A stretch of 64,000 bases of DNA from an uncultured virus (IMG/VR IMGVR_UViG_3300032030_002667) (IMGVR_UViG_3300032030_002667), one strand, 5' to 3'; positions 813 through 63,380 are shown, counted from the first letter of the stretch. Notes: generated by a model from the letters alone, not told the origin. Numbers and translations: made by a program.

Positions 813-837
813 TGAGCCTCTTGTCGGATTCGAACCA
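813..837. repeat. att core, left copy (duplicated tRNA-Thr 3' end)
   Basis: TGAGCCTCTTGTCGGATTCGAACCA, identical to 63356-63380. Confidence 0.95.
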
Positions 838-28390: not shown

Positions 28391-28402
28391 CCTTTTAAGA
28401 TT

Positions 28403-29665: not shown

Positions 29666-29688
29666 AATTACGTCTTTTTATTTTTGAA

Positions 29689-32319: not shown

Positions 32320-33588
32320 ATGACTGCAATAGAAATTTCAATGTTACCAAATATATTTCAACTCATAGATTTTTTGAAATCACAAGAAAATGAAATGATG
32401 TGTTCAACAAATGGATGGGCTGGCTTTTCTATTTGTAACTCTTTTCCACTGCAACGTGTAGCCAATGCTTTATGGGATAGCAATCGAGTGTATGTGAATA
32501 ACAAAGGAAATGATCTGTTCATTGTTAATCGACTTAACAGCGGAAGATATGGTCTTAAGCCCAATCTACGTGAACATCGCTTTCTTTTCAGAGGACAGAA
32601 CAAAGCATATGAAAGAATATTATCCTCTTTCTCAAGAGGAGATAAAGACGACCGCCTTGTAAGCAATCTAAGATGCGAAGATTTTATTTCTCTTCTGAGA
32701 ACTCATCCTCTGTTTATGATGTTTGAACATGGAATTCATTTAGAGCCTATACGCAAACCCTTTTTCTTCGACATGAATTATTATGGTTTAGCACAACATT
32801 ATGGATTTAATACTGGTTTAGTCGACTTCTCTTCCGACATATCAGTTGCCGCATTCTTTGCATGCACGAAACACATTGGGAATGACACGTATGAACCTAT
32901 AACCGACACCAAAGAGTATCCATATGGCGTTATCTATGCTCATGGAATCATTCCATCAGAATCATTTGTCGGTCTTGGCTTTAGAAGTATTGGCTTACAA
33001 ATTTATCCTAGAACTGGAGTTCAAAAAGGTTTTTTCTATGAGGAAGGAAGTACACGAATGCCATTAGAAGAAATGGTTAGTACATATTATTTCCGACACG
33101 ATGCAATTTGTTCAAGAAAGGTATTTGAATTGCAACAAAACGGTCTTAGACTTTTCCCAAAAGATAATATACAACCATATGCACAGGAAATCTTGAATTC
33201 AAATGAGATAACTGGTATTACCTTTGCAAATAATTTGTATACAAATCAAGATAATTTAGATAATAATATTAATAGACTAAGGAAAAAAGGAGTTAATATA
33301 AATTGGGGCAAACAATGGTGCTTTACACAGGATATGCTTCACTCATATTATCAGAATATTAAAAACGGATTGTGGGAAGATTATTGTAAGCAGATTGCAT
33401 TTGTTGACGAAAATGAACAACAACTCAAAGAATCATTACTTAATATTCCCCAATCACCTTACTATCGACAATTCTTTGATGAACGAGAATACAAAAGATT
33501 GCAATATTTTACACTTGACAAAAGAACACGGGCAAAAAGGAATATTAATAAGCCACAAAGTTGTGTGTCCCACGTTTCAGCAATATAG
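32320..33588 (+). CDS. FRG-domain protein
   Basis: FLFRGQ and LAQHYGFNTGLVDFSSDISVAAFFAC. Confidence 0.85.
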   Translation: MTAIEISMLPNIFQLIDFLKSQENEMMCSTNGWAGFSICNSFPLQRVANALWDSNRVYVNNKGNDLFIVNRLNSGRYGLKPNLREHRFLFRGQNKAYERILSSFSRGDKDDRLVSNLRCEDFISLLRTHPLFMMFEHGIHLEPIRKPFFFDMNYYGLAQHYGFNTGLVDFSSDISVAAFFACTKHIGNDTYEPITDTKEYPYGVIYAHGIIPSESFVGLGFRSIGLQIYPRTGVQKGFFYEEGSTRMPLEEMVSTYYFRHDAICSRKVFELQQNGLRLFPKDNIQPYAQEILNSNEITGITFANNLYTNQDNLDNNINRLRKKGVNINWGKQWCFTQDMLHSYYQNIKNGLWEDYCKQIAFVDENEQQLKESLLNIPQSPYYRQFFDEREYKRLQYFTLDKRTRAKRNINKPQSCVSHVSAI

Positions 33589-33871: not shown

Positions 33872-35318
33872 TTGAACCATGAAATTGTAATGGCTTCTTC
33901 AGACAAGGCTACTAACAATTTCATCACAAAGATGAAGAAGGAAGGCCGTCTTGTTAAGATTGCTGCGAAAATATACACTACCAATCTTAATGATACGCTG
34001 GAGAATATCATCCGTAGAAACCTCTCCTTTATTCTTGGCGAGCAATACCCCGATGCTGTCATCAGTCATCGTAGTGCCTTCGAGTGTCGGCCTACTAACG
34101 ACGGGCATATCTACCTTCTATTACACAAAGAAGGTTTCGTTACCTGGTGTTACCATCCATCTGCTTGAAGGTCAGAAAGCATTGCCCAGTGATTATTCTT
34201 TCATGGGCGGATTGCATATCTCATGCAGCGCCAGAGCCTATCTTGAAAACCTCCAGACAGGATATAGTCGCGATGGAGTATCCAAATGTCTTACATAAGC
34301 TGTCTTAGAAGAGAAACTGGACAAAGTACTTCAGACCAATGGCGAGGACGAACTGAATAAATTGCGTGACTCTGCTCGTGAGATTTCCATTCAACTCAAC
34401 ATGACCGATGAGTTCAAGAAACTGGATTCTATCATTGGCGCAATTCTTTCAACAAAACCTTCGAAGATTCTAACTTCGTCCGTTGCCGAGGCCCGAGCAT
34501 TAGGTGAACCTTTCGACAGTCAACGACTGAAACTCTTCAGCATTCTGATGGCTGCACTTAACGAACGTGAGTTTGAGAACTTCCCTGACCCTAATAAGAC
34601 GGATGCTGCCTATAACAATTTCGCTTTCTTTGAGAGTTATTTCTCAAATTATATCGAAGGAACAGAGTTCGAGGTGGAGGATGCCAGACAGATTATCGAA
34701 ACACGTACCCCAATGCCTGCCCGTAATGCTGACAGCCACGACGTACTGGGAACATACTACATCGTGTCAAATCGTAAGGAAATGGCTATCACCCCTACCT
34801 CACCCGACCATCTGCTTGACATCCTCCAACATCGGCATCGTGTGATGATGTCTGCCAGGCATGAAATTAACCCTGGTATGTTCAAGACACAGAACAACCG
34901 CGCAGGTAAGACTCATTTCGTCGATTTCGCGCAGGTTCGCGGCACATTAAAGAAGGGCTTTGAGGTGTATAGTGCATTGCGACACCCTTTTGCCCGCGCA
35001 CATTTCATGCTTTTCATGATTAGCGCAGTTCATCCGTTCTCTGACGGTAACGGACGACTTTCCCGTATCATGATGAACGCTGAACTGACGGCTGTAGGAC
35101 AGTCGAAGATTATCATCCCCACGGTGTTCCGCTCCAACTATCTTGGTGCCCTACGCCAACTCACTCGAAAGGACAATCCCGATAAGCTAATCAATGCCAT
35201 CCAGCGAGTCCGGCTTTTCAGCTATAACCTACATGGCGAAAGTTTCGAGCAGATGCACGACTATATGGAAAACTGCAACGCATTCAAAGAAGAGGATGAA
35301 TATATACTTCGCTTCTGA
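33872..35318 (+). pseudogene. Fic-domain protein, disrupted
   Basis: Fic motif HPFSDGNGRLSR intact in 34362-35318; frameshift near 34115 and in-frame TAA at 34296-34298 split the N-terminal part. Confidence 0.8.
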
Positions 35319-35708: not shown

Positions 35709-35916
35709 ATTTTTCCATTGCAAAGGTCGGACAAGCGTCATGCTGCAAGGGTCACACACAGGCCGTTTCCGTTTGGCTCGAAAAAGTTTCAAAGATTTTG
35801 GGGTGCAGTTGCTCCTATCTCCAAATTCTCTAAGTCATACTGATTGAAATTTTTGTCGGCCATCCCTTGCATTTACATTCCTTCTCCTTGCTTCCGGCTG
35901 TATGCACTGTAAAAAT
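35709..35916. promoter_or_regulatory. Long fold-back A, candidate ssDNA (Frpo-type) promoter
   Basis: Nested arms ATTTTT/AAAAAT, TGCA/TGCA, GTCGGA/TCCGGC, TGCAAGGG/CCCTTGCA, TTTCAA/TTGAAA; left arm has CAAAGGTC. Confidence 0.65.
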
Positions 35917-35960
35917 TAAAAAAGCTAAGTAATTCAATCTAACATTAAACATTCAAAGTT

Positions 35961-36185
35961 ATGGTACACGTTACATTAGAATCAAAATTGAGCTTCGGAC
36001 AAAGCCGTTCACGCCGTCAAGTTAGCAGCAATCTCTACAGAGTTGTAGTAAATGGTGAAGATGGAGAATACTATGAATATGACAGTATCGAAGCCAATTC
36101 GTTCGCAGAGGCAAGCCGTAAAGGGGAAAGTCTCGCCCGTGGTATGGTGGACATCCAGTATATCGAAGTTTATCAAATAGCATAA
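35961..36185 (+). CDS. Small hypothetical protein downstream of fold-back A
   Basis: 74 aa with A-rich translation initiation region. Confidence 0.75.
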   Translation: MVHVTLESKLSFGQSRSRRQVSSNLYRVVVNGEDGEYYEYDSIEANSFAEASRKGESLARGMVDIQYIEVYQIA

Positions 36186-36200
36186 TCAATTATTCACAAT

Positions 36201-36644
36201 ATGTCAAACAATCTAAATTCTACAATCATGACAACAAACAATTCAATCCTCGTCGATAATGTTCGCTCGAACAAGTCTGACAACATGGTATGGGCTGTAT
36301 ATGCACAGGGTAATGAACAGCAAACATGCTATTGCAAGTCACCCTACGCTGCAATGAAAATGGCTTTCCTGCTAAAGAAGCAGACAGGGCTTTACATCTC
36401 TGACATCTGTCTCACTCGTCTCTCGCTGGAGATTCGCAAGCTCAAAGAGGCTGCCCTCACTCCTGAGCAGAAGGAGGTCAAAGAGAAAATCGATGAAGCT
36501 GTTGAACAGTTCGTCGAAGAGCATAGCGTCGATAATGTCCTCGCTAAGGCTGATGAAGAGAAAGCCAAAGCAAAGGGCAAGCGCAAGAGCAGCAAGCCTA
36601 AAGCCTCAGCTAAGAAGCAGAAGGAAGAGAAGGTGGCCAATTAG
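36201..36644 (+). CDS. Hypothetical protein, N-domain shared with 43768-44724, Lys-rich tail
   Basis: WAVYAQG...AMKMAFLLKKQTGLYI...LTRLSLE versus WQVFVEG...AIRYSFLLAKKLNLRI...LAALSLD. Confidence 0.75.
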   Translation: MSNNLNSTIMTTNNSILVDNVRSNKSDNMVWAVYAQGNEQQTCYCKSPYAAMKMAFLLKKQTGLYISDICLTRLSLEIRKLKEAALTPEQKEVKEKIDEAVEQFVEEHSVDNVLAKADEEKAKAKGKRKSSKPKASAKKQKEEKVAN

Positions 36645-36664
36645 GTCACCTTCCTTCTTATTCT

Positions 36665-36699
36665 GTCTTTTTAGTTTTTTTTCTTTTGCCTTACCTTTG
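36665..36699 (+). promoter_or_regulatory. Element-specific promoter GTCTTT-N21-TAnnTTTG
   Basis: GTCTTT at 36665, TACCTTTG at 36692. Confidence 0.75.
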
Positions 36700-36716
36700 C
36701 AGAAAATTCTTCTGCA

Positions 36717-37778
36717 ATGCTAAGTCTTGAAACTTATACCTTCTCTTCTGCCCTGCCGGAATCGTTCACTATCGAAACTGTCCAGGATGAAGATCACGTC
36801 GAGGTGGATATCTTTCTTGATGGGCATACTGCTTACTCTACGCGGCTCTATGCGAATAGTGTCGGAGTATGCACGTTCTATGAACTGCGCTCCATAGTGG
36901 AGCAATACATGATTGCCCATAATCTTACGCTGGCTTCTTTTGAGCTGATGATTTCACATGAGAATGGCGGTGAACAGCTTGAAGACAAGTACATCATCTT
37001 CTCGCGGCACAAGCATGTCAACAATGATACGCTTGACTTCCTGGAGTCGCATTTCCTTACTGGCCGCCCTTCTTATGTGATGCCGCGTAAGTCGTATGGC
37101 TCCATCTCGTTCTTTGCTACGCCTGAGGAGTATTGCACGCCTTTCATTGACTGTGTCTTTGAACGGGATGGGGAGATAATTAATTATCGGCTGAATTATT
37201 CGCTCTACTACCATAATGTGCCGTATATCTATAACATCTCCATTTCGCCTATGTCTATCAGGAATATGGTGATTGCAGCAGCAGAGGACTACGGCAAGCT
37301 GCTAGCTTTTACTGTTCATGCTGGCCGCCGCTCGATGACGGTCTATGTGGTGGAGGAAGAGCCTACCATCCTTTTTTCATTCCGCAATAGCTACAATGCG
37401 CTGGAGTCGATGCCAGTCTTTGGCACTACCACACTGAAGACGGAAGTCAGCAGGAAGGAAGCTGTGTCGTTGAACATCACTTCCTTCTATGACAAGTCGG
37501 TGTCCCGCAAGTGGCAGGTGAAGACTGTACCGCTCTCCCAAGAGGAAGCACATTGGTACAATGACTTCCTGGAGTCCGACTGCGTGACTCTAAACTTGTC
37601 TAATGATTACCCTGACTTGCGCATCCTTATCTCTGACATCACTTCGGAGATTAGCGATAGTGCCAAGGACCTTGTTCACATCAAGTTCTCATGGAGATTC
37701 GAAGATAGCTCTATATGGCTGGACGAAGACAGGTTCCCGCAGGTCTTCTCTGCGCCATATAACGACACCTTCAAATAG
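36717..37778 (+). CDS. Putative tail/baseplate structural protein
   Basis: 353 aa, beta-rich, FRNSYNALE motif, under the element-specific promoter. Role is inference. Confidence 0.5.
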   Translation: MLSLETYTFSSALPESFTIETVQDEDHVEVDIFLDGHTAYSTRLYANSVGVCTFYELRSIVEQYMIAHNLTLASFELMISHENGGEQLEDKYIIFSRHKHVNNDTLDFLESHFLTGRPSYVMPRKSYGSISFFATPEEYCTPFIDCVFERDGEIINYRLNYSLYYHNVPYIYNISISPMSIRNMVIAAAEDYGKLLAFTVHAGRRSMTVYVVEEEPTILFSFRNSYNALESMPVFGTTTLKTEVSRKEAVSLNITSFYDKSVSRKWQVKTVPLSQEEAHWYNDFLESDCVTLNLSNDYPDLRILISDITSEISDSAKDLVHIKFSWRFEDSSIWLDEDRFPQVFSAPYNDTFK

Positions 37779-37829
37779 TTTCCTTTTCATTCTTTCTTAA
37801 CTCTTAATTCTTAACTCTTAACCTTCATC

Positions 37830-38060
37830 ATGCAATCAATACACATTTCTACTGTCAGAAAGATGCTGCAGGCTCCTGAGCCTGTCGATATCAAGTGCTG
37901 GGCGAAGGACGGACGTGTCCTTGAACTGAATAATGTGCTGCCGCTGCGTTACAACTTCTACGAAGGTACGCAGCAGGTGAAGCTCTTGAAGTCCAATCAG
38001 ATTCGAACTATTCGCCTCTGCCTTATCTTCGAGGTGAATGGTATTCCTTGCTTTCTCTAA
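37830..38060 (+). CDS. Small hypothetical phage protein
   Basis: 76 aa preceded by heptamer repeats. Confidence 0.7.
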   Translation: MQSIHISTVRKMLQAPEPVDIKCWAKDGRVLELNNVLPLRYNFYEGTQQVKLLKSNQIRTIRLCLIFEVNGIPCFL

Positions 38061-38075
38061 CATGGCAGGTCGGAA

Positions 38076-38160
38076 AACACATGCTGTGGCGTTGGGCAAC
38101 ACATGCTGTTGCGATGTCCAACACATGCTGTTGCGTTGGACAACACATGCTGTGGCGTTT
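38076..38160. repeat. Four 22-bp tandem repeats (AACACATGCTGT core)
   Basis: Cores at 38076, 38098, 38120 and 38142. Confidence 0.9.
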
Positions 38161-38178
38161 CGGACTTCATCATGATGT

Positions 38179-38213
38179 GTCTTTTCCCATTCCTGCAAAC
38201 TGTTATACCTTTG
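38179..38213 (+). promoter_or_regulatory. Element-specific promoter GTCTTT-N21-TAnnTTTG (probably leaderless mRNA)
   Basis: GTCTTT at 38179, TACCTTTG at 38206, ATG 4 nt after the box. Confidence 0.75.
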
Positions 38214-38217
38214 CCGT

Positions 38218-38739
38218 ATGAAAAGAACAACATCCATAGAGAATATCTTCAGGCCGCTTGCTGAGCAGTCTGTGCAGTCTGCGCTCACTAATGAGGTGCA
38301 GATTGCGGATATTCTCGAATGGGTGCTGGAGCAGGTCGGCCCTTCTGAGGTATGGCAGACGTCCTTCTCTATCAGTGAGGAGTTCCTGCGCCGACTGTAC
38401 TTCATCACACGAGGTGGCAAGGCTTCGGCTATTCACCTGGTACTGGACTTCAAGGCTACAAACAAGACGCTCCACCTGTGGAGGTTCATCGATCAGGTGA
38501 TTTCTGATACTGTTCTCGCAGACAACCATTCGAAGGTCTTACTCGTGCAGTCTGCTTCAGGGGTCAAAGTATCTATCATCACTTCGCAGAACTTGACACG
38601 CGGTAATCGTAATGAAGCTTACATCATCACTACTGAAGCTGCCGTGTTTGACAAGTTCCTCGCTGAAGTGGAACATCTTATCAAATGGCACTCGGTGCCG
38701 CTTTCGGAAATACTGTCTCAAAAAGTTGATTCCTTATAA
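38218..38739 (+). CDS. Phospholipase D-like (HKD) nuclease-fold protein
   Basis: NHSKVLLV...IITSQNLT...RNE matches the HxK...SxN...E pattern. Confidence 0.7.
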   Translation: MKRTTSIENIFRPLAEQSVQSALTNEVQIADILEWVLEQVGPSEVWQTSFSISEEFLRRLYFITRGGKASAIHLVLDFKATNKTLHLWRFIDQVISDTVLADNHSKVLLVQSASGVKVSIITSQNLTRGNRNEAYIITTEAAVFDKFLAEVEHLIKWHSVPLSEILSQKVDSL

Positions 38740-38771
38740 TTCTTAATTCTTAACTCTTAATTCTTAACTCC

Positions 38772-39047
38772 ATGACTTTCACACAAGAACAACTTGAACA
38801 AATCGGTAAGTGGGCTTCTATCTATCTGCCCATCTCGGACATGGCGCTCATGCTGGATATTCCTGCTGAGATGCTGCGTGATGAAATACGCAACAAGCAT
38901 ACGGAGGTCTCGCTGGCTTATCACAGGGGCAAGGCTGCCTCCCGAGTGAAACTGCATCAACAGGAGATGTTGCTGGCACAGGTAGGTTCGCCTCTTGCCA
39001 TCGAGAACGCTCATCGTAATCTCCTAGACATGGAGGATGATGAGTAA
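38772..39047 (+). CDS. Small HTH protein, possible terminase small-subunit component
   Basis: PISDMALMLDIPAEMLRDE HTH-like; AYHRGKA...GSPLAIE. Confidence 0.55.
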   Translation: MTFTQEQLEQIGKWASIYLPISDMALMLDIPAEMLRDEIRNKHTEVSLAYHRGKAASRVKLHQQEMLLAQVGSPLAIENAHRNLLDMEDDE

Positions 39048-39113
39048 ATCACAGCGGTAGCAAATTCTTCACTCTTCATTATTTCATTCTTTCATTTTTT
39101 CATTCTTACTATC

Positions 39114-39743
39114 GTGCCCTTTCCTGCAGTACAAGATGTTATCACTACGGACTTCTTCACAGCTGAAGATGAGCTGAGGAAGCAGCATCCCGCCGCTTCC
39201 GTTGAGCGTGTCTTGCGCCTCCGTGAGCTTTACAACTGGGTTATATCTAACCCAGACTGTAAAGACAAGGAGTTCGTGGATGTGGCCATCGGTAGGTTCG
39301 GCATCTGCAAGACACTGGCTTACGATGACCTCAAAATCATCAAGTCTGTGCTGCCGAATATCACGCAGGCTTCCCGGGATTACCATCGCTGGAAGTACAA
39401 CGAGATGATTCTGGAAACATACCAGATGGCAAAGAAGCGCAAGGACACGAAGACAATGGAGCGGGCGGCCACCTCATACGCGAAGTTCAATAATGTGAAC
39501 GTGGAGGACGAACAATCTGTGCCATACGACATGATTGTAGTCCAACCGTTCACTGCTACTGATGACCCGTCTGTCCTGGGCATCAAGCCCATACCGAACA
39601 TCGAGAAGGTTATCTCGGACATGATTGAGAAATATCGCGCTGAATCGCTTGACATTGATGACATCGAGTATGAGGATGCGGACATCATATATGATGACTA
39701 TGAAGAAGTCCGGGAGGATGAGACAGACAGCCTTAATCTCTAA
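39114..39743 (+). CDS. Putative terminase small subunit / packaging protein
   Basis: HTH-like FGICKTLAYDDL, helical core, acidic tail; GTG start. Inference. Confidence 0.5.
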   Translation: MPFPAVQDVITTDFFTAEDELRKQHPAASVERVLRLRELYNWVISNPDCKDKEFVDVAIGRFGICKTLAYDDLKIIKSVLPNITQASRDYHRWKYNEMILETYQMAKKRKDTKTMERAATSYAKFNNVNVEDEQSVPYDMIVVQPFTATDDPSVLGIKPIPNIEKVISDMIEKYRAESLDIDDIEYEDADIIYDDYEEVREDETDSLNL

Positions 39744-39754
39744 TCTAAATTCGT

Positions 39755-40255
39755 ATGACGAATTTCAATTGGAATGCCACTGCTTTCTTTGAACGGCTGA
39801 CTGCCTCTAACAAACTGGCACAGCAGGAACACTTCGCTTTCCTTCGGGTGAGCGGACTGGAAGGGCTGGAGGAGACGCTGCATACTCTTCAGCGGACAAC
39901 CGCTTTCGTAGCTGTGTCGGACATCGCCCAAGGTTATACGGAGCTGAATAATACACCGCATACCCGAAGGGTGAAGACTATCTTCATCTGTATGCGTCAT
40001 GCTCTGGATGACATGACTGTCAGGCAGCAATGCATGGACACGATGCGGGAGCTTTTCCGGCAGTTCATGTCGGTGCTCATCCAGGAGAAGGTACGGGTAG
40101 AACGTGAACACATCTACCTTGACCCGCGTATCTCTTTCAATGAGATTCCGCAGTATTTCTTCTCAGGATGCGCTTGCGCCTACTTCCAAGTTGCTACGGA
40201 TGTCTATACGGACCTGCACTTCAATAATGAAGAGTGGAACACTTCCCCAATATGA
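39755..40255 (+). CDS. Putative tail terminator / neck protein
   Basis: 166 aa alpha/beta pattern, adjacent to a gp10-like gene. Confidence 0.5.
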   Translation: MTNFNWNATAFFERLTASNKLAQQEHFAFLRVSGLEGLEETLHTLQRTTAFVAVSDIAQGYTELNNTPHTRRVKTIFICMRHALDDMTVRQQCMDTMRELFRQFMSVLIQEKVRVEREHIYLDPRISFNEIPQYFFSGCACAYFQVATDVYTDLHFNNEEWNTSPI

Positions 40256-40265
40256 ATTGTGAATT

Positions 40266-40691
40266 ATGAATTATGAATTTGAACAGAAGGCCATCGAGGA
40301 GCGTGCCAAGTACGTTGCTGCGTTCAATGACACGATGATTAAAATCTGGCAGGAACAGATTACGCTCCTTGGGGTGATTGACACTGGCCAGCTGCTGCGC
40401 TCTCCTGTTGGGGTTCGCGCTACGGCTGACGGCAAGGTGTCGGAGGTGCATCTGTCACAGGCTTTCCTCGAATATGGCTTGTGGCAGGATTACGGCACTG
40501 GAAAAGAGGTGCCGCGTGGGAACAGTGGCGATTTGGGAAAACCCAAAGTGCGCAAGGCTCGCCACTGGTTCTCTCGGAAATACTATATGTCGGTGATGAA
40601 CATCAAGGAGTTCATGGCTGATTCGCTCGGAAGACAGTTCCAGGGGATTTTGGCAGATTTGGACGGGAAGAAACTTGGCAGGATGCACTAA
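40266..40691 (+). CDS. HK97 gp10-like tail completion protein
   Basis: VIDTGQLLRS...EYGLWQDYGTG...RKARHWF. Confidence 0.65.
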   Translation: MNYEFEQKAIEERAKYVAAFNDTMIKIWQEQITLLGVIDTGQLLRSPVGVRATADGKVSEVHLSQAFLEYGLWQDYGTGKEVPRGNSGDLGKPKVRKARHWFSRKYYMSVMNIKEFMADSLGRQFQGILADLDGKKLGRMH

Positions 40692-40712
40692 ACATTCTGT
40701 CTTGCCTTAGTC

Positions 40713-41099
40713 TTAATTGTCCTTAATGGTATTTGAATTCTGATTGTATGCCTTGGCTACACACTTCCACTGGCCGTCTATCTTCAGCAGGAGCAAAACA
40801 TCGGTAAAGTCGATGGTGCCGCCCCAGCCTTCTTCCAATACGCGAACTACGGCTAATGTCTCTTCAAGTTCCAAAACATCGATGCGGGTCTTGAACTGCT
40901 CGCCTGCACCAACAGTATCTACATTGTGATAGAACTGCTCGATGCTGCCACGCTCGAACTTGCCGTTAAGGAATCCAAACAGACAGGCATCTTCGGTAAA
41001 CAGTTCCTTGGCATACTTGCTGTTACCCTCGGCTACGCTCTTTGTAAACTTGCTGGCTGCCTCTACTACTGCGTTGTAATCTTCAATCTTGCTTCTCAT
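40713..41099 (-). CDS. NTF2-like (lumazine-binding/SnoaL) protein, moron
   Basis: ELFTEDACLFG...FTDVLLLLKIDGQWKCVAK; own minus-strand TACCTTTG promoter near 41142-41149. Confidence 0.8.
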   Translation of the reverse strand: MRSKIEDYNAVVEAASKFTKSVAEGNSKYAKELFTEDACLFGFLNGKFERGSIEQFYHNVDTVGAGEQFKTRIDVLELEETLAVVRVLEEGWGGTIDFTDVLLLLKIDGQWKCVAKAYNQNSNTIKDN

Positions 41100-41180
41100 T
41101 GTTTCTTGTGATTTTTAATAGTTGTTTGTACTTTACGATTGCAAAGGTACAAAATTATTTTGAGTTTTCTGCATTTTTCT

Positions 41181-41215
41181 GTCTTTTCGTGCGTCATTTT
41201 GTATCCGTACCTTTG
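41181..41215 (+). promoter_or_regulatory. Element-specific promoter GTCTTT-N21-TAnnTTTG
   Basis: GTCTTT at 41181, TACCTTTG at 41208. Confidence 0.75.
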
Positions 41216-41231
41216 CAGAAAACTTTTAGCT

Positions 41232-41930
41232 ATGGAATATATCTCTAAAGTTGTCGAACTGATTTCGGCTTTCCGTTCCGAGACAAGGCAGGATGCTATC
41301 ACCCCTGACTCGCTCGGCTCTCTGCTCCTGCGGATGATTAATGCGCTGCGCTATCTATGGAGCTCTTCTACACATCCTTTCTATCATATTCAATGTGATA
41401 CGAAGAATGGACGTCTTATCGTCAAACACCCTACTGACTTGATGCAGAAGGGATATGTGCCTTACCTCCTGCGGTACTCGAAGAAGAAACCTCGGTACCG
41501 CGACATCGAGGACAGGCACACACGCTCGTACGGACCCGTTATGCGAGGTTGGCATCTCTTCTATGATGAGAAGAAGCTGCAGATGGCACCTAATGGGGTC
41601 GTATATATAGGAAAGAATGTCGGGACTGACAAGAATCCTGAATGGGTGTATGAGGAGAACTGCCGAAATCTGTTCGGGAATATCCGTGAGGCTACGGAGG
41701 AAGGCGGTATTATCTACAAGGTGGGATTCGGGAGCCGGGTGTATCGCATCAAGAGCAATCACCGCTTCCGCTTCGGGGTGGTGTTCGGACCGCCGCTGCC
41801 CGAGAAGGGCAACCGCTCGCTGAAGTTCGCTGAGTGCGTCACGAACATTGCGGAGTTCTATGTGAACTTCCACAAGAGATCGGTTCGGGAAGATGGGGAT
41901 GAAGGGTACAAGATATCGTACTCCATATAA
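41232..41930 (+). CDS. Hypothetical phage protein
   Basis: ATG 41232 downstream of the promoter; MEYISKVVELISAFRSETRQDAITPDSLG. Confidence 0.7.
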   Translation: MEYISKVVELISAFRSETRQDAITPDSLGSLLLRMINALRYLWSSSTHPFYHIQCDTKNGRLIVKHPTDLMQKGYVPYLLRYSKKKPRYRDIEDRHTRSYGPVMRGWHLFYDEKKLQMAPNGVVYIGKNVGTDKNPEWVYEENCRNLFGNIREATEEGGIIYKVGFGSRVYRIKSNHRFRFGVVFGPPLPEKGNRSLKFAECVTNIAEFYVNFHKRSVREDGDEGYKISYSI

Positions 41931-41937
41931 TCTATAT

Positions 41938-42034
41938 AAAAAGTGTGAGCAGCACAAAGGCCGCTCATCATACATAAAGGAGTTGGCATACGCCAAACGA
42001 CTGTCAGAAGTGAGCCTTGTCTCGCTCCACTTCT
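41938..42034 (-). ncRNA. Putative ~97-nt small RNA divergent from the portal gene
   Basis: Minus-strand element-specific promoter, three hairpins, the last followed by a U-run. Confidence 0.55.
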
Positions 42035-42038
42035 GGTG

Positions 42039-42073
42039 CAAAGGTACAACAATAGTTCAAAATAGCAAAAGAC
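42039..42073 (-). promoter_or_regulatory. Element-specific promoter GTCTTT-N21-TAnnTTTG, minus strand
   Basis: AAAGAC at 42068-42073 and CAAAGGTA at 42039-42046; same 27-nt offset. Confidence 0.7.
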
Positions 42074-42086
42074 ACTTGTTTTTCGT

Positions 42087-43421
42087 ATGAAAAAGAAACG
42101 TTTTCAACATAGCATTTGCTTCTCTTCTGTGGAGGATATGCCGGAGGCGAAAGGCTCGGTGGCATTCATTACGGACAGCGCAAAGGTGTTCAAGGATGAC
42201 ATCGATATCGCACCCATTACGCTGACCGATGGCACGCAGTATGTGCCTTGGGGTGGCGATAATATGATGCCGTACAATATCCTCAGCATGATTGAGAAGG
42301 ATGAGACACTCGCCACTTGTCAGATGTTCAATGCGGAGGTGTGCTATGGCTCCGGCCTGGTATATAACACCGATGGGTGCTCTGCGTCTGTCAAGGAGGA
42401 GGTGGAGGACTTCCTGCTTACCAATTCGCTGCCGTCCTACTTCCTCGGGGTCTGTCAGGACTTCAAACACTTCGGTTGGTGTGTCTCGGTCATCATCCTG
42501 GACAATGAGGGGAAGCGCATCGTACGGCTCTACCGAAAGGAGGTGTGCTACTGCCGCTTCTCTCCGGCGAAATCGGATGGGCGCATTGAGTATGTGCTGT
42601 ATGCCAACTGGAACAAGTCCCTGGCATCCATCAAGGAGGTGGAGAAGATTCCGCTGCTTTCGTTCGACAACCCGTGGGGCGATCTGCAGCAGCGGATGCA
42701 GAAGAAGTCGTCTGCCAGGAAGTTCGCGGTGGTCTGCCGTGTGCCGACACCGGACAGCACGTATTATCCTATCCCTTATTACGCTGCGCTCTTCAAGGGG
42801 AATTGGTACAACATCAAGCAGCTTATCGGGATGGCGAAGGAGGCGAAGCTGAAGAACTCGGCTCCACTCAAATACCACATCGAGGTGTCTCAACGCTACT
42901 GGGAGGGCATCTTCAAGCGTGAGCGCATCACGGACATCAAGAAGCAGCAGGACAGGGTCGTCAAGGAGAAGCAGCTTATCATTGACTTCCTGACGGGTGC
43001 CGAGAACAGCGGCAAGGCGCTCTTCTCCACGTTCTACATCTCTCCGAACGGCGAGGAACAGCATGATGTGGTCATCAATCGGATTGATGAGAGCAAGGAG
43101 GGCGGCGATTGGTCCACCGACATACAAGAGGCTGTCAATATGGTCTGCTTCACCATGCGCGTTCACTCCAACCTCGTCGGCTCTGTGCCGGGAAAGTCGC
43201 AGTCTAACAACAGCGGGTCTGACAAGCGTGAACTCTATACCATTGCTCAGGCGCTTCAAAAGCCGTATCACGATTTGCTCTTTACCGTGCATCGCATCAT
43301 CATGAAATTCAATCAGTGGAAACATGCTTACCCGGAATGCCCGTTCATTCAACTGACTACCCTGGACGAGAACAGGGATGCAAAACAGGTAACACCAGAT
43401 GCGCCTCCTAATGATGATTAG
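42087..43421 (+). CDS. Portal protein (putative)
   Basis: 444 aa; YVPWGGDNMMP, DFKHFGW, YYPIPYY, LTGAENSGK, typical of Bacteroidetes phage portals. Confidence 0.75.
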   Translation: MKKKRFQHSICFSSVEDMPEAKGSVAFITDSAKVFKDDIDIAPITLTDGTQYVPWGGDNMMPYNILSMIEKDETLATCQMFNAEVCYGSGLVYNTDGCSASVKEEVEDFLLTNSLPSYFLGVCQDFKHFGWCVSVIILDNEGKRIVRLYRKEVCYCRFSPAKSDGRIEYVLYANWNKSLASIKEVEKIPLLSFDNPWGDLQQRMQKKSSARKFAVVCRVPTPDSTYYPIPYYAALFKGNWYNIKQLIGMAKEAKLKNSAPLKYHIEVSQRYWEGIFKRERITDIKKQQDRVVKEKQLIIDFLTGAENSGKALFSTFYISPNGEEQHDVVINRIDESKEGGDWSTDIQEAVNMVCFTMRVHSNLVGSVPGKSQSNNSGSDKRELYTIAQALQKPYHDLLFTVHRIIMKFNQWKHAYPECPFIQLTTLDENRDAKQVTPDAPPNDD

Positions 43422-43541
43422 GGGGCGTTTTGCATCTATGTTCTCGCCTCTGACAGCTACGCATTCTCTACTCTTCCTTCTTACTTCTTCCATCTTACAT
43501 CTGCTTTTGTCATCGTCTCTCCATTCCTCCAGCTCCACGAC

Positions 43542-43739
43542 AATCTTTTATTTACTTTTTCCTCACAAAGGTAGCTCGGCGGCTCCAGTCAAGGGTTTCC
43601 AGATATTTTTCTAAAGAAAGATGATTCCCTTCGGCGTCGGAGCTGCCACTTTCTTTGAATAATAGCCGGACATCCTTCCTTGACAACAGGGCCTTTCCCC
43701 GTTGACGCTCTTCGTTGTTCGTAAAAAATAAATAAGATT
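43542..43739. promoter_or_regulatory. Long fold-back B, candidate ssDNA (Frpo-type) promoter
   Basis: AATCTT..TATTTA/TAAATAAGATT, TCGGCGG/CCGTTGA, GTCAAGG/CCTTGAC, AAAGAAAG/CTTTCTTT; CAAAGGTA at 43566. Confidence 0.7.
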
Positions 43740-43767
43740 TATGTTTCACTTACAAAATTACAAAACA

Positions 43768-44724
43768 ATGAAAGCAAATGTTCAGATTTCCGCAGTGAAG
43801 AAAGAGTTCAAGAATGGTCAGCACGGCTGGCAGGTGTTTGTCGAAGGCATGGAGGGTAAGCTCCGCTGTGAAATGAATTTCCGCGATGCGCTTCGTGCAA
43901 TTCGGTACAGTTTCCTTCTCGCTAAGAAGTTGAATCTCCGAATCAATGAAGTACAGCTTGCAGCGCTCTCGCTCGATTACAAGCAGAGCAAGTCAGCTGT
44001 CGAGCAGGCACAGGTCGCAGAGGTGGCTACAGAGGTAGCGCAGGAAGTGGCCGCTGAAGCAGAACAAGGTGAGCCTTCCGATGAAAAGTCGGAGGCCGCC
44101 CATGAGTTCGTCTGCTGCTCAAAGATGCAGAAGTTCCGTCAGGAACATCCTGATGCTGTTGTCATCGGTCGTAAGGGTTCTGTCTGCGAACAGTTCGGAG
44201 AAGATGCTAAGGCTTGCGCTGAAGCTCTCAATAACACTCCAGAAATCCTGTGTGATGACACACTGTATTTCGTCTTCGATATTGAATATCTTGATGAGTG
44301 CATCCAGAAGCTTGTCGCCAGTGGCAAGAAGGTCTGCCTCTGGGACATCTTCAAAGGTGATGATGATTTGGAAGAGTTCAAAGCTATGGTAGAAGCCGAG
44401 ATAGCTCGCAACAAACAAGCTAATTCACCTCTCTTCAAACAGTTTGTCGAGTTAAAGAAGAATCACCCAGATGCACTTCTTCTTTTCCGTAGCGGTGATG
44501 TTTACAAGTGCTACGAAGAAGATGCTATCAAAGCTGCTGAGGTGCTTTGTCTCACTGACATTGTCGAAGAAGACAAAATCACTATCGCAAGCTTCCCGCA
44601 CCACAGTTTAGATACTTATTTGCCACGTCTAATTAGACATGGAATCCGAGTTGCCATCTGTGATCAGCTCGAAGCTCCGAAGCCTAAGAAGCAGGCTCAG
44701 TTGGAATTGTTCGCCAATGTGTGA
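43768..44724 (+). CDS. Protein with two MutS domain I-like repeats
   Basis: LKKNHPDALLLFRSGDVYKCYEEDA...FPHHSLDTYLPRLIRHGIRVAICDQ and a degenerate earlier copy FRQEHPDAVVIGRKG...KLVASGKKVCLWD. Confidence 0.8.
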   Translation: MKANVQISAVKKEFKNGQHGWQVFVEGMEGKLRCEMNFRDALRAIRYSFLLAKKLNLRINEVQLAALSLDYKQSKSAVEQAQVAEVATEVAQEVAAEAEQGEPSDEKSEAAHEFVCCSKMQKFRQEHPDAVVIGRKGSVCEQFGEDAKACAEALNNTPEILCDDTLYFVFDIEYLDECIQKLVASGKKVCLWDIFKGDDDLEEFKAMVEAEIARNKQANSPLFKQFVELKKNHPDALLLFRSGDVYKCYEEDAIKAAEVLCLTDIVEEDKITIASFPHHSLDTYLPRLIRHGIRVAICDQLEAPKPKKQAQLELFANV

Positions 44725-44923
44725 ACAATTCCTTTTCATTACGAACTCACGGCTCATCCGTGAGTTTTTTTGTGTTCGGCTTTGTGGTTTCATAATTTTG
44801 TCGTACCTTTGCAGCAGCATCAAGAGCAGGAGCCTTAGGCTCACTCACCAACCGAGCATAGGATGCCACGGTGGTCAAGGTACGATGCGGAAGAATTATA
44901 TTAACTTCAAAATTATCCTAATT

Positions 44924-45187
44924 ATGAAAGAACATCTTTCCAATCCCGATTTTGCGACTCCTGTTGAGTTTGCTTCTATCCAAGACATCGTAGATAAGCT
45001 GAATTATTCCGTGGGAAACCCCGGATGGTCTTCAGCACGTGCAGCTCATGACATGATGCTCGTTGACATCCTTATAAAAATGGGTGTTGACGTGTCTGAA
45101 ATTAAAAAGGGAAACACGGTTTCCTTCATGCATAAGATCGCTTATGACAAAGAACATAATAAATTGGTGATAGCCGCAGGGAAGTAA
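44924..45187 (+). CDS. Small hypothetical protein, stand-alone transcription unit
   Basis: TACCTTTG at 44804, ATG 44924, terminator near 45212-45256. Confidence 0.65.
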   Translation: MKEHLSNPDFATPVEFASIQDIVDKLNYSVGNPGWSSARAAHDMMLVDILIKMGVDVSEIKKGNTVSFMHKIAYDKEHNKLVIAAGK

Positions 45188-45332
45188 CCCTTCTGCCTAT
45201 CACTGCATCTGAAGCCTTTTCCTGTCGTCTGCTCTTGACGGGGAAAGGCTTTTCTTTTGCTTTTTGAGGAAAATGGCACCGCTCATTTCAAAAATTGTCG
45301 TACCTTTGCAGCGGTTTTAAGGATAACATATT

Positions 45333-45734
45333 ATGAATACGAAAATCATTCTCGCAGTCGTTCTCGCTATTATTGTTGTAACAGCTTGGGCTGTGAATGC
45401 TCATCGTAATAAAGGGTTCAAGACTGTCTCTTCTGAAGAGTTCGCGCAAATCATCGGCGACACGGCCACAGTGCAACTGCTGGACGTGCGCACGAAAGAG
45501 GAATATGAGGAGGGTCATATTGCTGATGCTTTGCTCGTAGATTTCTATTCCTATAACTTCGAGGAGCAGGCGACCGCCAAGCTCTCGAAAGAAAAGGCTG
45601 CGGCTGTCTATTGTCGCAGTGGCCGTCGCAGCGCATCGGCTGCTCAGAAGTTGGTTAAGCTGGGATACGAGGTCATCAATCTTGATGGCGGCATCTTGGC
45701 TTGGCAACGCGCTAAGATGCCCATCGCGAGGTAG
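45333..45734 (+). CDS. Rhodanese-domain protein, moron
   Basis: LLDVRTKEEYEEGHI, VYCRSGRRS, NLDGGILAW; N-terminal membrane anchor. Confidence 0.9.
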   Translation: MNTKIILAVVLAIIVVTAWAVNAHRNKGFKTVSSEEFAQIIGDTATVQLLDVRTKEEYEEGHIADALLVDFYSYNFEEQATAKLSKEKAAAVYCRSGRRSASAAQKLVKLGYEVINLDGGILAWQRAKMPIAR

Positions 45735-46510
45735 TCTTGTTGCATCCTCTTTCAGGTCGCTATGTTTTAGGTGCATTGTCCTTTTTTACTTGTCTGTGAG
45801 GGCTGGTAGCGCTCACTTCTGCTCCGCCTCTAATCCCTCTTCTGCTCGGACTTCCTGCTTAGGCGCGATGCTCTGTTCCGCTCCTGTGCTGCCATTTCAG
45901 CCGTGCCGGACTCACTATGCTTTCCTTTATTCACTCAGGCGATTAACGAGATACTGAGCACATCCCCATGCCACTACTTGGTAGGTTTTCCATTGCATCC
46001 TGTGCCATAGCGTCATCCCATCAGGTGCGCCTGCTTCTACCGCTCATTCTCTTTTCTGCCTTGCTTTCCTCCTTCCGTTTGTCTGGTTCGCCACCGCTCG
46101 GAATGACATCGCTCCTTCTCGCTTGTACTCTCTTCTCTGCCTTAATCCTTTTTCCCATTTGTGTCCACGCCCGTAAGGTAAGGAGGGAAACATTCCCCGC
46201 CCTTTTGCTCATTCCCTTTCTCGGCTCCACTGCTGGCACATTGCTTCACCTCCATCACTCTATATCGTCTCTCTCCAGTACACTTGTTGCTACCCTCTGT
46301 GCAGCATGATTCTATATTCATACCCATCTGCCTTTCTTCGGCAAGCTGCCTCCGTGGGCTTGCTCCGTCTGTCATGCTCTATCTTCTTCATTCTCTCATT
46401 CTTTCATTGCTTCATTCTTCAAATGCTCATGCACTTTCGCTTACCTGTGCCGCTCTTTGCCTGCTTTGTCTCGCGCGTACTTTTGTTTATTAGGTCATAC
46501 TGCTGCCTTC

Positions 46511-46713
46511 GCCTCATTTTTACTTTGCAAAGGTAGCCAAGCCCGTGCCCTGCAAGTACCATTCATCCTTCATTATTAGCGCACTTTTTTCAAAATCTTT
46601 TGGGACAAGCCTCAAAACATTTGCTTTGCCCTCTCGGTGAAATAAGTTCTCAATTCCTTGCATCTGCGCACTTTCCACTTTCGGCTCTCGTATTGCACGT
46701 AAAAATCAGAGGC
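46511..46713. promoter_or_regulatory. Long fold-back C, candidate ssDNA (Frpo-type) promoter
   Basis: GCCTC/GAGGC, ATTTTTAC/GTAAAAAT, TGCAA/TTGCA, AGCC/GGCT, GTGC/GCAC, TGCAAG/CTTGCA; CAAAGGTA at 46528. Confidence 0.72.
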
Positions 46714-46752
46714 TCAATGGCCTACAGTATTAACATTTTAATAAACAAAATT

Positions 46753-47850
46753 ATGAGTACTTACAAGACAAGAAAAGCGCAGGCTAAGAAGGCTGGCGCA
46801 GGTGCTAACAGCGAAAGCGCACAAGAGAGAGCATTGAATCTCTTCGCGGACATGATGATCGAGAAGATTGAGTCTATCATGACAGATTGGAGCAAGCCTT
46901 GGTTCACAGAGGGCATCGCTTCGTGGCCGAAGAATTTATCTGGCAGATGCTACAATGGTATGAACAGCCTCATGCTCCTGATGCACTGTGAGAAGCAAGG
47001 GTACAAGTACCCGGTGTTCTGTACATTCGACAGAGTGATGGGTCTCAATTACAACAAGACATCGGTGGGCAATGTGCCTGCAGTGGATGCCGAGGGGAAT
47101 AAGCGCCCGATGGTGTCGGTCAACAAGGGCGAGAAGAGTTTCCCTGTCTTCCTTACTTGCTTTACGGTCGTCAACAAGGACACGAATGAGAAGATTAAGT
47201 ACGAAGAGTACAAACAGATGCCTGAAAGCGAGAGGGAGCATTACAATGTCTATCCGAGCACAGTGGTTTACAATGTCTTCAACATCGATCAGACAAACAT
47301 GAAGGAGGCAAGGCCGGAGATTTACGAGAAAATCATCCTGGAGAATGGCGGGAAGAAGCAGGAGCACAAGGGAGAAATGTTCCATTTCGATGCTATGGAC
47401 AGAATGATGGAAGAAAATCTCTGGATTTGTCCTATCAAGCAGCTGCATGGGGATAGTGCTTTCTATAGCATCTCCAAGAAGTTAATCGTGCTTCCAGAGT
47501 TCTCGCAGTTCAAGGATGGTGAGTCGTTCTACGGCACGGCGTTCCATGAAATGGCGCACAGCACGGGAGCGGAGGAGCATCTGAATCGGCTGAAGCCTGC
47601 TTCTTTCGGAAGTGCCGAATACGCACAAGAGGAATTGGTGGCAGAGCTGACAAGTGCGATGGTTTGCCAGTACTGCGGTATGGACAAATACATCAAGGAG
47701 GACAGTGCGCCTTATCTCAAATCATGGCTCTCTTCACTTCAGCAGGATGCACAGTACATCAAGACAATCCTGCTCGATGTCAAGAGAGCATCGGCCATGA
47801 TTACAAAGGCAATCGAGGATTGCACCAGTCAGGCAGCACAGGCTGCTTGA
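46753..47850 (+). CDS. ardC: ArdC-family ssDNA-binding antirestriction protein with zincin-like domain
   Basis: WSKPW, PKNLSGRCYNGMN, YNVFNIDQT, AFYS, FHEMAHSTG, YAQEELVAEL, YLKSWL. Confidence 0.9.
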   Translation: MSTYKTRKAQAKKAGAGANSESAQERALNLFADMMIEKIESIMTDWSKPWFTEGIASWPKNLSGRCYNGMNSLMLLMHCEKQGYKYPVFCTFDRVMGLNYNKTSVGNVPAVDAEGNKRPMVSVNKGEKSFPVFLTCFTVVNKDTNEKIKYEEYKQMPESEREHYNVYPSTVVYNVFNIDQTNMKEARPEIYEKIILENGGKKQEHKGEMFHFDAMDRMMEENLWICPIKQLHGDSAFYSISKKLIVLPEFSQFKDGESFYGTAFHEMAHSTGAEEHLNRLKPASFGSAEYAQEELVAELTSAMVCQYCGMDKYIKEDSAPYLKSWLSSLQQDAQYIKTILLDVKRASAMITKAIEDCTSQAAQAA

Positions 47851-47899
47851 TTGGTTCCTCTCTGCTTGATAGCCTGGGCTTCGGCTCAGGCTTTTTTGT

Positions 47900-50203: not shown

Positions 50204-50254
50204 ATTTCATTTCAATATTCATTATTAAATTCTTCATTCTTAATTTAATTCATC

Positions 50255-51085
50255 ATGGACAAACAATTCACATTGAAGCTGCAGGAGTGGTTGAATACTC
50301 CTGCTGAAAAGAGAGATCTTGAAGTCGGAGCTACGCTCTTGCTCCAGCTCACTAACAACAAGATTCTCTATCGGAACATCAAGAGCAATCTCAAAGGTCA
50401 TGCTGACTTCATCGAGTTCAAGCTGAAGCGTTACCTCCAGTATCGCCTTCAGGAGCTGACGCACGAGGAGGTCGAAGCCATGCAGAAGCAGGTAGATGGC
50501 ATCGTGGGTAAGTTCGCGCTTGACAAGGCAAAGGCTTCCTCTAAGAAGGGCAAGGCGCCTAAATCCGAAGCCCAGGAATGGAAGGGAGGCAAGCGTGCCG
50601 ATCACGACACGCTGCCTGATGAAATACAGGCGCTCTATGTCGAGAATGCCAGCATCATGCAGAAGATGCGGGAACTTCATCTTCAGCTGCGCAATCTCTC
50701 TACCAAGGCTTCTACCTGCCCGGACTCCGACCGCTATCCATTCCTCAAAGAGATTATCGAACTGGATAAGCGGTATCATAAGAATTGGCAGGCTTACGAC
50801 AGCTTCACAGCATCTTCGGACGCTGCCGATACTGGTAGCGGTGAAACCGCTCCCACGCCAGCTGCTCAGGCTGAAGCTAAGCCAGAGGTTGGTCAACAGA
50901 CGCTTGACGAGACTGCGCGTCTTGAACAAAAGAACATCCTTCGCCAGATAAACCTGGCTAAGGGGCGCTACAAGAAGTCGCCTTCAGAGAAACTGAAGGA
51001 CTCTATCCTCGCGCTGTACAAGCAGCTCACCGCTCCTTCGGATGCTTTGACTGCTGACTTGAAGCAATTGGGTATTCTTAATTAA
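50255..51085 (+). CDS. Hypothetical phage protein
   Basis: 276 aa helical; GKRADHDTLPDEIQALY. Confidence 0.7.
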   Translation: MDKQFTLKLQEWLNTPAEKRDLEVGATLLLQLTNNKILYRNIKSNLKGHADFIEFKLKRYLQYRLQELTHEEVEAMQKQVDGIVGKFALDKAKASSKKGKAPKSEAQEWKGGKRADHDTLPDEIQALYVENASIMQKMRELHLQLRNLSTKASTCPDSDRYPFLKEIIELDKRYHKNWQAYDSFTASSDAADTGSGETAPTPAAQAEAKPEVGQQTLDETARLEQKNILRQINLAKGRYKKSPSEKLKDSILALYKQLTAPSDALTADLKQLGILN

Positions 51086-51331: not shown

Positions 51332-51621
51332 ATTATCAACAAATCAATTTCACCTTGGACAATGGCAAGTATGTTGCCTCTGTTCAGCTGAGCGATGTGG
51401 CTGCACTGCACATCGAAAGGGAAGCCGCTGGCAATTTCAGTGCAAAGCAATCATCGCTGCCGGCTTCCTACAATCCTGCCTTTGCCAATCTCGAAGGGCT
51501 GTCTGATTGCTGCTTCATGCCTTCTGTGATGGACTTTGAACTCGCATTCGCTGTCTATCCTAAGTTCATCGAACTGCGCTCAGCTACACCGATCAAAAAA
51601 GCGTATCTGATTACACAGTAA
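51328..51621 (+). CDS. Hypothetical protein
   Basis: 97 aa, 4-bp overlap with the holin. Confidence 0.65.
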   Translation: MNYQQINFTLDNGKYVASVQLSDVAALHIEREAAGNFSAKQSSLPASYNPAFANLEGLSDCCFMPSVMDFELAFAVYPKFIELRSATPIKKAYLITQ

Positions 51622-51673
51622 ATCCTATCTCTTAACTCTTAACTCTTAACTCTTAATTCTTAACTCAACTCCC

Positions 51674-63355: not shown

Positions 63356-63380
63356 TGAGCCTCTTGTCGGATTCGAACCA
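63356..63380. repeat. att core, right copy
   Basis: Identical to 813-837; overlaps the tRNA T-arm and acceptor stem. Confidence 0.95.

Follow-up and report, generated by a model that had tools for sequence, protein, structure and literature searches.

Why should a tailed phage carry, just ahead of ardC and other short gene units, long hairpins whose best promoter faces away from the genes that follow? The question is raised by a 62.5-kb element integrated at tRNA-Thr in an uncultured-virus contig (IMG/VR record IMGVR_UViG_3300032030_002667, CheckV completeness 100); the whole 64,000-nt contig is called the window below. Three imperfect fold-backs of about 200 nt (A, B and C) lie in this element, and the sequence suggests, with a probability of roughly 0.55, that they are single-strand-specific promoters, Frpo-like in design and built on the -33 and -7 boxes of Bacteroidota.

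The fold-backs, which an earlier note made from the sequence alone had pointed out, are recovered as follows, with energies for the minus strand folded as single-stranded DNA (ssDNA), z-scores relative to 200 shuffles each, and E-values against a hidden Markov model (HMM) of the hairpin family:

35709..35916, minus strand (the strand proposed to fold): fold-back A, A/C-type, -34.1 kcal/mol, z -3.09, nhmmer E 5.4e-37
43542..43739, minus strand: fold-back B, of the B-type, whose template arm carries a side hairpin, -28.4 kcal/mol, z -2.34
46511..46713, minus strand: fold-back C, A/C-type, -31.6 kcal/mol, z -2.84, nhmmer E 3e-29

Only one of 200 shuffles for A, two for B and one for C fold as well as the real sequence, and each fold-back is a long, stable, imperfect stem-loop of the template strand, as is characteristic of Frpo/ssi elements. 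They were missed by an exact-seed repeat finder because their arms are too imperfect, none is overlapped by an Rfam family at gathering score, and the mean column identity of the three copies is only 66%. The left-arm motif CAAAGGTM-N12-22-CAAG is found four times in the window against 0.25 expected, a count reached by none of 100 shuffles. Three of the matches fall within A, B and C (35721-35749, 43566-43593 and 46528-46556), and the fourth (50392-50422) is inside an open reading frame (ORF) and has no fold-back. When all TAnnTT(T/C)G boxes in the window were scanned, no convincing fold-back besides A, B and C was found, and fold-back C ranked first among all -7 boxes in the window. A separate small stem-loop of GGCT...AGCC type in the ardC leader (46709-46724) keeps its pairing through changes in relatives, as judged by eye.

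The left-arm box reads CAAAGGTC in A and CAAAGGTA in both B and C, and the spacers of A, B and C measure 17, 16 and 17 nt. Read on the minus strand, each left arm gives CTTG, then 16-17 nt, then (T/G)ACCTTTG:

35721..35728, minus strand: -7 box of A, GACCTTTG, with G in place of the first T
35746..35749, minus strand: CTTG, the -33 element of A, with a 17-nt spacer to the -7 box
43566..43573, minus strand: -7 box of B, TACCTTTG
43590..43593, minus strand: CTTG, the -33 element of B, with a 16-nt spacer to the -7 box
46528..46535, minus strand: -7 box of C, TACCTTTG
46553..46556, minus strand: CTTG, the -33 element of C, with a 17-nt spacer to the -7 box

Relatives with an A-type hairpin have TACCTTTG or TAACTTTG as their -7 box. 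The right arms retain CCTTGC, with GCAC(T)GTAAAAA or GTTCGTAAAAAA replacing the -7 box about 30 nt away. By the geometry derived from the sequence, the left-arm promoter faces left in duplex DNA and leads away from the gene. Once the minus strand is folded, the left arm, as non-template strand, is set against the right arm and aimed at the stem base, into the gene. The stem rebuilds both host promoter boxes and directs them into the downstream gene, as Frpo/ssi stems do. Rechecking the sequence thus upholds the earlier note in its account of the arms (a left-arm pair of boxes 16-17 nt apart and a degenerate, over-spaced right-arm copy) as well as in its geometric argument that the promoter points away from the gene in the duplex and into it in the folded minus strand.

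To define the family, relatives of ardC were collected from genomes and viral contigs, the closest of which carry the same fold-backs at the same places. A pattern made from both hairpin ends matched at least 119 viral-contig stretches, and 112 matches in 206 sequences yielded 83 unique copies. Covariation was assessed on a 56-copy alignment of the largest cluster, with the consensus structure computed on it. Paired cells make up 88.6%, compared with 73.4% in column shuffles (0/500 reach 88.6%), and drop to 39-51% when partners are slid by 1-3 columns. Changes on both sides are seen in 36 of the 54 pairs, and there are 412 compensatory cells vs 142. One alignment served both to derive the structure and to test it, and its sequences are related; the low values of the slid controls argue that the signal is real. 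The hairpin structure is under selection, and the compensatory changes across homologues on which the earlier note had made its proposal depend are present. RNAalifold gave 0 pairs on a MAFFT alignment of 20 copies of mixed type, because that alignment was not structure-aware. At order level, a pattern scan matched 21 of 401 genomes, with a reversed-pattern control about as frequent and two hairpin-like matches only. BLAST of the region had no match in isolate phages, and in plasmids it returned no hairpin match, only coding similarity of ardC.

The promoter boxes have a constant position within this structure. TTG and TA(a/c)CTTTG are at one fixed place in all 56 aligned copies, the search pattern having fixed most of the -7 box while leaving the -33 box and the spacing free. 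With 80 copies folded one by one, 91-96% have the -33 TTG paired, and the -7 positions are paired in about 90%, except for the A (11%) and the next base (22%). In the -10 element recognised by sigma-70, the A flips out, and the A left unpaired in the -7 box resembles, by analogy, a nucleation site opened in advance. Spacers of 17 nt are found in 51 and of 18 nt in 18 of the 80 copies, whereas ordinary -7 boxes before ORFs at the same loci have TTG mostly at 19-20 nt (49/317) and at 17 nt in just five cases. The template arm is longer and bulged, and in the B-type it forms its side hairpin there.

Orientation is equally regular. The -7 box is on one arm in 81 of the 83 copies and on the other in one, and a sense-oriented TAnnTTTG is found in the right arm plus 70-nt leader of a single copy (1/83). 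As such a box is almost never present, the genes are without a canonical duplex promoter of their own, and the absence of an equivalent gene-facing duplex promoter is a further point in common with Frpo/ssi. An ORF of at least 40 aa starts no more than 200 nt downstream on the same strand in 81/83 copies, typically after a gap of 30-60 nt. Copies are co-oriented in 10 of the 11 loci that have two or more, and they are spaced 3-8 kb apart. The minus strand folds better than the plus strand in 80/83 copies with DNA parameters (by 4.9 kcal/mol on average) and in 68/83 with RNA parameters. A wobble test that also favoured the minus strand (119 G-T vs 58 A-C) was discarded as biased by deriving the structure on that strand.

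Each fold-back heads a short plus-strand unit closed by a terminator-like hairpin. Pfam matches and terminators agree with the units that had been outlined before (two small genes, a MutS-I gene, and ardC):

35961..36185, plus strand: 74-aa acidic protein (isoelectric point 5.0), unit A, of the family commonest behind these hairpins
36201..36644, plus strand: 147-aa basic protein, unit A
36629..36653, plus strand: terminator-like hairpin, end of unit A
43741..44724, plus strand: 327-aa protein with C-terminal MutS domain I (PF01624, E 1.7e-33, residues 230-317), unit B
44703..44767, plus strand: two terminator-like hairpins, end of unit B
46753..47850, plus strand: ardC (PF08401, ArdC-N, E 2.4e-23; PF18818, MPTase-PolyVal, E 2.8e-31; phrog_7245, E 9e-53), unit C
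47871..47892, plus strand: terminator-like hairpin, end of unit C

The ardC product has the make-up of an ArdC, an ArdC-N ssDNA-binding domain plus a zincin metallopeptidase with HEMAH at residue 265. The 147-aa protein and the MutS_I protein (43741-44724) share an uncharacterised N-terminal domain (BLASTP E 1e-5, 30% over 81 aa). In a census of 81 downstream ORFs, biased to A/C-type hairpins by the search pattern, 49 encode a 65-88-aa acidic family that includes 35961-36185, seven encode ArdC, six the MutS_I protein and five DUF4313. Single cases include a PRTase and, in a relaxase element, DUF2958. The 74-aa protein has no match in Pfam, PHROG or PADLOC. Its AlphaFold2 (AF2) model is beta-beta-alpha-beta (predicted local distance difference test score, pLDDT, 73.6) and has no Foldseek match at E <=0.001; the weak top rows are phage DNA-mimic or RNA polymerase-binding inhibitors, among them phi29 p56 (E 0.075) and T7 Gp2 (TMt 0.63), and serve as leads only. 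In the parts of PMC5512222 drawn on here, ArdC-N and MutS-I are ssDNA- or mismatch-binding domains of polyvalent proteins, which are delivered with incoming DNA, notably by Bacteroidetes conjugative elements. The cargo set fits an ssDNA theme.

A single-strand promoter is the simplest single account of these observations of structure, conservation, covariation, box placement, strand and orientation rules and cassette anatomy. It would explain at once why the -33 box is paired while the A of the -7 box is left free, why the arms are asymmetric and why a duplex promoter is lacking, as well as the fixed place before terminator-bounded cassettes, the co-orientation and the ssDNA-related cargo. Under this model, exposure of the minus strand, from which the downstream genes are transcribed, as a single strand would let about 200 nt fold into a long imperfect hairpin in which the gene-distal arm serves as non-template strand. 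That arm would present a paired TTG (-33), a 16-18-nt spacer opposite the longer, bulged template arm, and TAnCTTTG with its unpaired A. RNA polymerase is predicted to bind here and to start at the A/T-rich stem base, near 35910, 43722 and 46700, and transcription would leave the hairpin along the single strand into the short terminator-bounded cassette. Dependence on ssDNA would follow from complementary-strand synthesis, after which the promoter would face away from the gene and the cassette fall silent. The minus strand might be exposed, in decreasing order of likelihood, during replication (as displaced strand or lagging-strand template), by end resection after entry (5' resection of the entering or cleaved genome being the candidate), or through mobilisation in trans. 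A broader proposition, that Bacteroidales tailed double-stranded DNA phages gate counter-defence genes (ArdC, MutS-I, the small acidic protein) by strand-specific single-strandedness, is put forward tentatively, as possible rather than probable.

Several points weigh against a single-strand promoter. The -7 box of fold-back A has G for its first T, and the left-arm boxes could also fire leftward from duplex DNA. Covariation support for the B-type is thin, with six related copies in which 33 of 58 pairs are invariant and six have double changes; a scan for B-type hairpins found only four stretches, one of them doubtful. With GU pairs disallowed, the wobble test picks no strand (47 G-T vs 51 A-C cells), and the strand call therefore rests on folding energies and box orientation. 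Four RNA-labelled public runs, from 24 listed, were compared as contigs, which may hold DNA and carry no information on starts, strands or levels; an RNA-labelled contig covering 46156-47838 crosses hairpin C, which would also fit read-through from upstream. Relaxase, coupling protein, type IV secretion system (T4SS), rolling-circle Rep and single-strand binding protein (SSB) families are absent from all window ORFs of at least 100 aa as searched with Pfam, so the window's gene content offers no sequence sign of an ssDNA phase. There is also no oriT-like non-coding similarity between the window and the relaxase-element loci described below.

The strongest alternative, though an unlikely one, is that two functions overlap in each fold-back, namely a leftward duplex promoter for an antisense or regulatory RNA and an inverted repeat acting at the RNA level as a processing site, attenuator or terminator. 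The left-arm boxes are indeed good Bacteroidota boxes, plus-strand RNA folds well too (-34 to -64 kcal/mol), the RNA-library contig spans both hairpin C and ardC, and the unbiased wobble count is neutral. However, no conserved leftward ORF was found at the fold-backs, and the long ORF on the minus strand to the left of B only shadows a real plus-strand gene, with 49, 27 and 167 substitutions relative to relatives falling on plus-strand codon positions 1, 2 and 3. Spacing of 17 nt is also rare among ordinary promoters of the same loci (5/317). Moreover, this explanation does not account for the constant place of the promoter in the hairpin across sequence types, the unpaired A, the right arm without a -7 box (1/83) or the better fold of the minus strand (80/83).

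Next in plausibility, and improbable, is a role in priming. In rolling-circle single-strand origins (sso) and the minus-strand origins of filamentous phages, a folded strand mimics a promoter and recruits host RNA polymerase in a strand- and orientation-dependent manner. If the fold-backs were signals of this kind, the polymerase would make a primer for the complementary strand, not mRNA. The architecture is equal to that of a single-strand promoter, the copies are co-oriented and 3-8 kb apart, and Frpo itself is described for both transcription and primer synthesis, going by the title of Masai and Arai 1997 as cited in PMC9849209. Against priming, 81/83 copies are just 5' of a co-oriented ORF, typically by 30-60 nt, the units end in terminators, and no rolling-circle Rep family is encoded by window ORFs of at least 100 aa. 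A dual role of the hairpins, in promotion as well as priming, is conceivable.

What remains to be weighed depends on the nature of the element, for which the relevant features are:

813..837: attL, a 25-bp direct repeat of the tRNA-Thr 3' end and the left boundary of the element
63356..63380: attR, the identical 25 bp within tRNA-Thr (63357-63431, minus strand), adjoining the integrase
61934-63064: tyrosine integrase, beside attR
7454-8527: Clp-type head maturation protease (PF00574; phrog_94, E 1.3e-30)
56095-60165: tape measure (PF10145; phrog_25337, E 2.5e-43)
52428-53480: amidase/endolysin, a solid match
2778-5987: DnaG-type primase, a solid match

An anti-repressor gene is also among the solid phage-gene matches, and the large terminase (TerL) is matched weakly (phrog_2, E 6.4e-7). 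Head protease, tape measure, amidase, integrase, weak TerL, att repeats and virus record together identify a tailed prophage. The element had been described as a phage with terminase, portal, capsid and tail genes and with neither relaxase nor T4SS. Protease, tape measure, lysin and weak TerL sustain the phage assignment, and six-frame searches of the window for relaxase families PF03432 and PF01076 were empty; portal and capsid genes were not confirmed in the window. The 444-aa protein at 42087-43421 has an Atlas lead only to Phage_portal (score 0.94; family in 19% of cluster members), no credible match in a PDB profile search, 3059 homologues that are all unnamed, and an AF2 model that is unusable at pLDDT 44. 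Phages often encode DNA-packaged proteins near the portal gene, according to the portion of PMC5512222 used here. If 42087-43421 is the portal gene, B and C would be at a common site for genes of packaged proteins, which would suit late expression coupled to replication.

In relatives with 68-90% DNA identity, the B and C cassettes are found in synteny, lodged between the tape measure and conserved phage genes. They are thus stable parts of related phages and not recent debris of an integrative and conjugative element, the outcome that would have told against the earlier note. Of five other long viral records sampled among those bearing the hairpin, four encode a tape measure but no relaxase, and the fifth a Mob_Pre relaxase but no tape measure. 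Fifteen syntenic loci, in genomes of Segatella, Prevotella and Bacteroides and in viral contigs, also hold hairpins detected by the family HMM (E 1e-9 to 1e-11). In L008, the one locus of the 15 that was annotated, the hairpin has a 19-nt spacer, and a DUF2958 protein is among the products of the unit that it heads; a Mob_Pre relaxase, an OmpA-like gene and an ArdC-containing operon are nearby. In Mob_Pre elements, ArdC-N, MPTase and MutS_I are fused in a protein of 805-896 aa (L008:5257-7674 and L013:5098-7788), upstream of a glucosaminidase/M23 hydrolase and a second, stand-alone ArdC. The description of the window genes as leading-region genes survives as an analogy only: the window has no leading region, no location beside an oriT and no relaxase, type IV coupling protein or T4SS families; Mob_Pre relaxase elements, for their part, do carry homologous hairpins.

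This distribution bears on a third alternative, of lower probability again, in which the ssDNA promoters function only in conjugative or mobilisable elements and the phage cassettes are passengers, silent or expressed by read-through. Mob_Pre elements do carry both homologous hairpins and the same gene families, and hairpin types have been shuffled between positions: an A-type precedes ardC in L001:4217-4417 and L002:5484-5683, and contigs in two public runs join 35899 to 46690. However, at least 119 viral-contig stretches were matched, four of the five long records sampled are phage-like as above, synteny holds across phages differing by 10-30% in DNA, and the covariation was measured on copies that come mostly from viral contigs. 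Least plausible by far are elements like Correia elements, miniature inverted repeats that carry an outward promoter, since the ~200-nt inverted repeats, in several copies exchanged between positions, have the look of such repeats but are only 66% alike in the window, lack a target-site duplication (by eye, three fold-backs), have consistently asymmetric ends (-7 box in 81/83 on one arm vs 1/83) and hold a fixed position just 5' of a start codon.

Other features of the prophage were recorded alongside. It carries defence cargo, comprising AbiD (13724-14614, E 9.6e-51), FRG/PDC-S15 (32320-33588), a Fic/SoFic-like PDC-S04 (34401-35318) and a PDC-M43A/B pair (54091-55889); the FRG and Fic genes are directly upstream of fold-back A. 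A low-GC minus-strand block (14994-30075) encodes Stealth CR2, DUF6734, BspA-type leucine-rich repeat, papain-family peptidase and type IX secretion system-sorted proteins, and looks like host-interaction cargo. Two adjacent paralogous genes of unassigned function (9607-10503 and 10551-11126; 75-81% DNA identity over 126-300 nt) are placed between capsid-region genes and the terminase-like gene. Four tandem 22-nt iteron-like repeats at 38076-38179, where no clear gene is evident, could serve as an origin or operator. An S-adenosylmethionine (SAM-I/IV) riboswitch aptamer at 44812-44924, plus strand (Rfam RF01725, 47.9 bits vs a cut-off of 41.1), is flanked by the MutS_I cassette and a rhodanese-domain gene (45333-45734), with a terminator-like hairpin at 45211-45252. 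CT-rich heptad runs (TCTTAAC or TCTTCAT repeated) are directly 5' of many plus-strand start codons:

8525-8582, 9567-9594, 10498-10543, 11970-12015, 37773-37818: CT-rich heptad runs, first group
38726-38771, 39060-39115, 46385-46419, 50218-50245, 51608-51667: CT-rich heptad runs, second group

In public runs, word depth at these spots is very high and the flanks are of many kinds, and the heptad motif is therefore common to many organisms; the runs may be a leader or translation signal.

If the fold-backs are single-strand promoters, expression would be coupled to the physical state of the genome, be it rolling-circle or lagging-strand replication or resection after entry or nuclease attack, and control of the cassettes would be independent of any regulator protein. 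Conjugative plasmids use single-strand promoters to express anti-defence genes before second-strand synthesis, and to our knowledge homology to F-type Frpo has been almost the sole means of mapping such promoters, in Proteobacteria and a few Firmicutes. The fold-backs would then be the first class of single-strand promoter beyond conjugative plasmids and ssDNA replicons, and the first on Bacteroidota boxes. The same type of cassette is common to phages and to mobilisable elements that enter cells as ssDNA. The hairpins form a family with Bacteroidota boxes that is supported by covariation, can be searched for and is widespread in the mobile DNA of gut and rumen Bacteroidales, and they offer a direct route to early or establishment genes in Bacteroidota, including the uncharacterised family of the 74-aa protein. 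Their presence in tailed prophages is unexpected, and would mean either that these phages have an important single-stranded phase or that ssDNA-gated expression is a wider principle.

Among known systems, the early promoters of coliphage N4 are 5-7 bp DNA hairpins read in the single-stranded state by the virion RNA polymerase. The fold-backs are alike in being candidate phage promoters that need a hairpin, and differ in their length of ~200 nt and their host-type boxes. The sso and minus-strand origins yield short primers and are not located before ORFs, whereas the fold-backs head terminator-bounded coding cassettes. In abstract-level descriptions, Gram-positive plasmids of the pLS20 family likewise express establishment genes from ssDNA promoters (PMC6294495, PMC8708921), in another phylum and with other boxes, and the likeness is drawn at that level and not from promoter structure. 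The nearest parallel is Frpo, whose stem-loop, in the sections of PMC9849209 and PMC11541004 considered here, rebuilds -35/-10 boxes, drives early leading-region genes and is inactivated by second-strand synthesis. As in the leading regions of F and ColIb-P9 described there, it is the non-coding template strand that folds and rebuilds the two boxes of the sigma factor, just 5' of anti-defence or establishment genes on one strand, and a second strand would switch the promoter off. The boxes are TTG and TAnnTTTG of Bacteroidota here and -35 and -10 there, and sequence homology to Frpo is therefore unlikely. The fold-backs, in addition, are in a tailed prophage without oriT-like similarity, relaxase or T4SS families, their spacer falls 2-3 nt short of that in duplex promoters at the same loci, and their promoter role is a predicted one. 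Because the boxes differ and the window has no leading region, the fold-backs are not, strictly speaking, Frpo family members.

In the main text of PMC11541004, no word starts with 'Bacteroid'; its supplementary tables of Frpo-like candidates might in principle include Bacteroidota. No paper joining ssDNA promoters with Bacteroid- was found in the literature searched, and titles and abstracts retrieved for leading region, Bacteroides and conjugative, or for ArdC, prophage and Bacteroid, mention no such promoters. With respect to cargo, pSa ArdC and the polyvalent proteins share with the window an ArdC-N domain, an HExxH zincin peptidase and MutS domain I, as set out in part of PMC5512222. In Mob_Pre elements ArdC-N, MPTase and MutS_I are fused, whereas the phage has separate genes, each behind its own fold-back. 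The hairpin family, which appears to be undescribed in the searched literature, appears to represent a known promoter principle in an unexpected host element.

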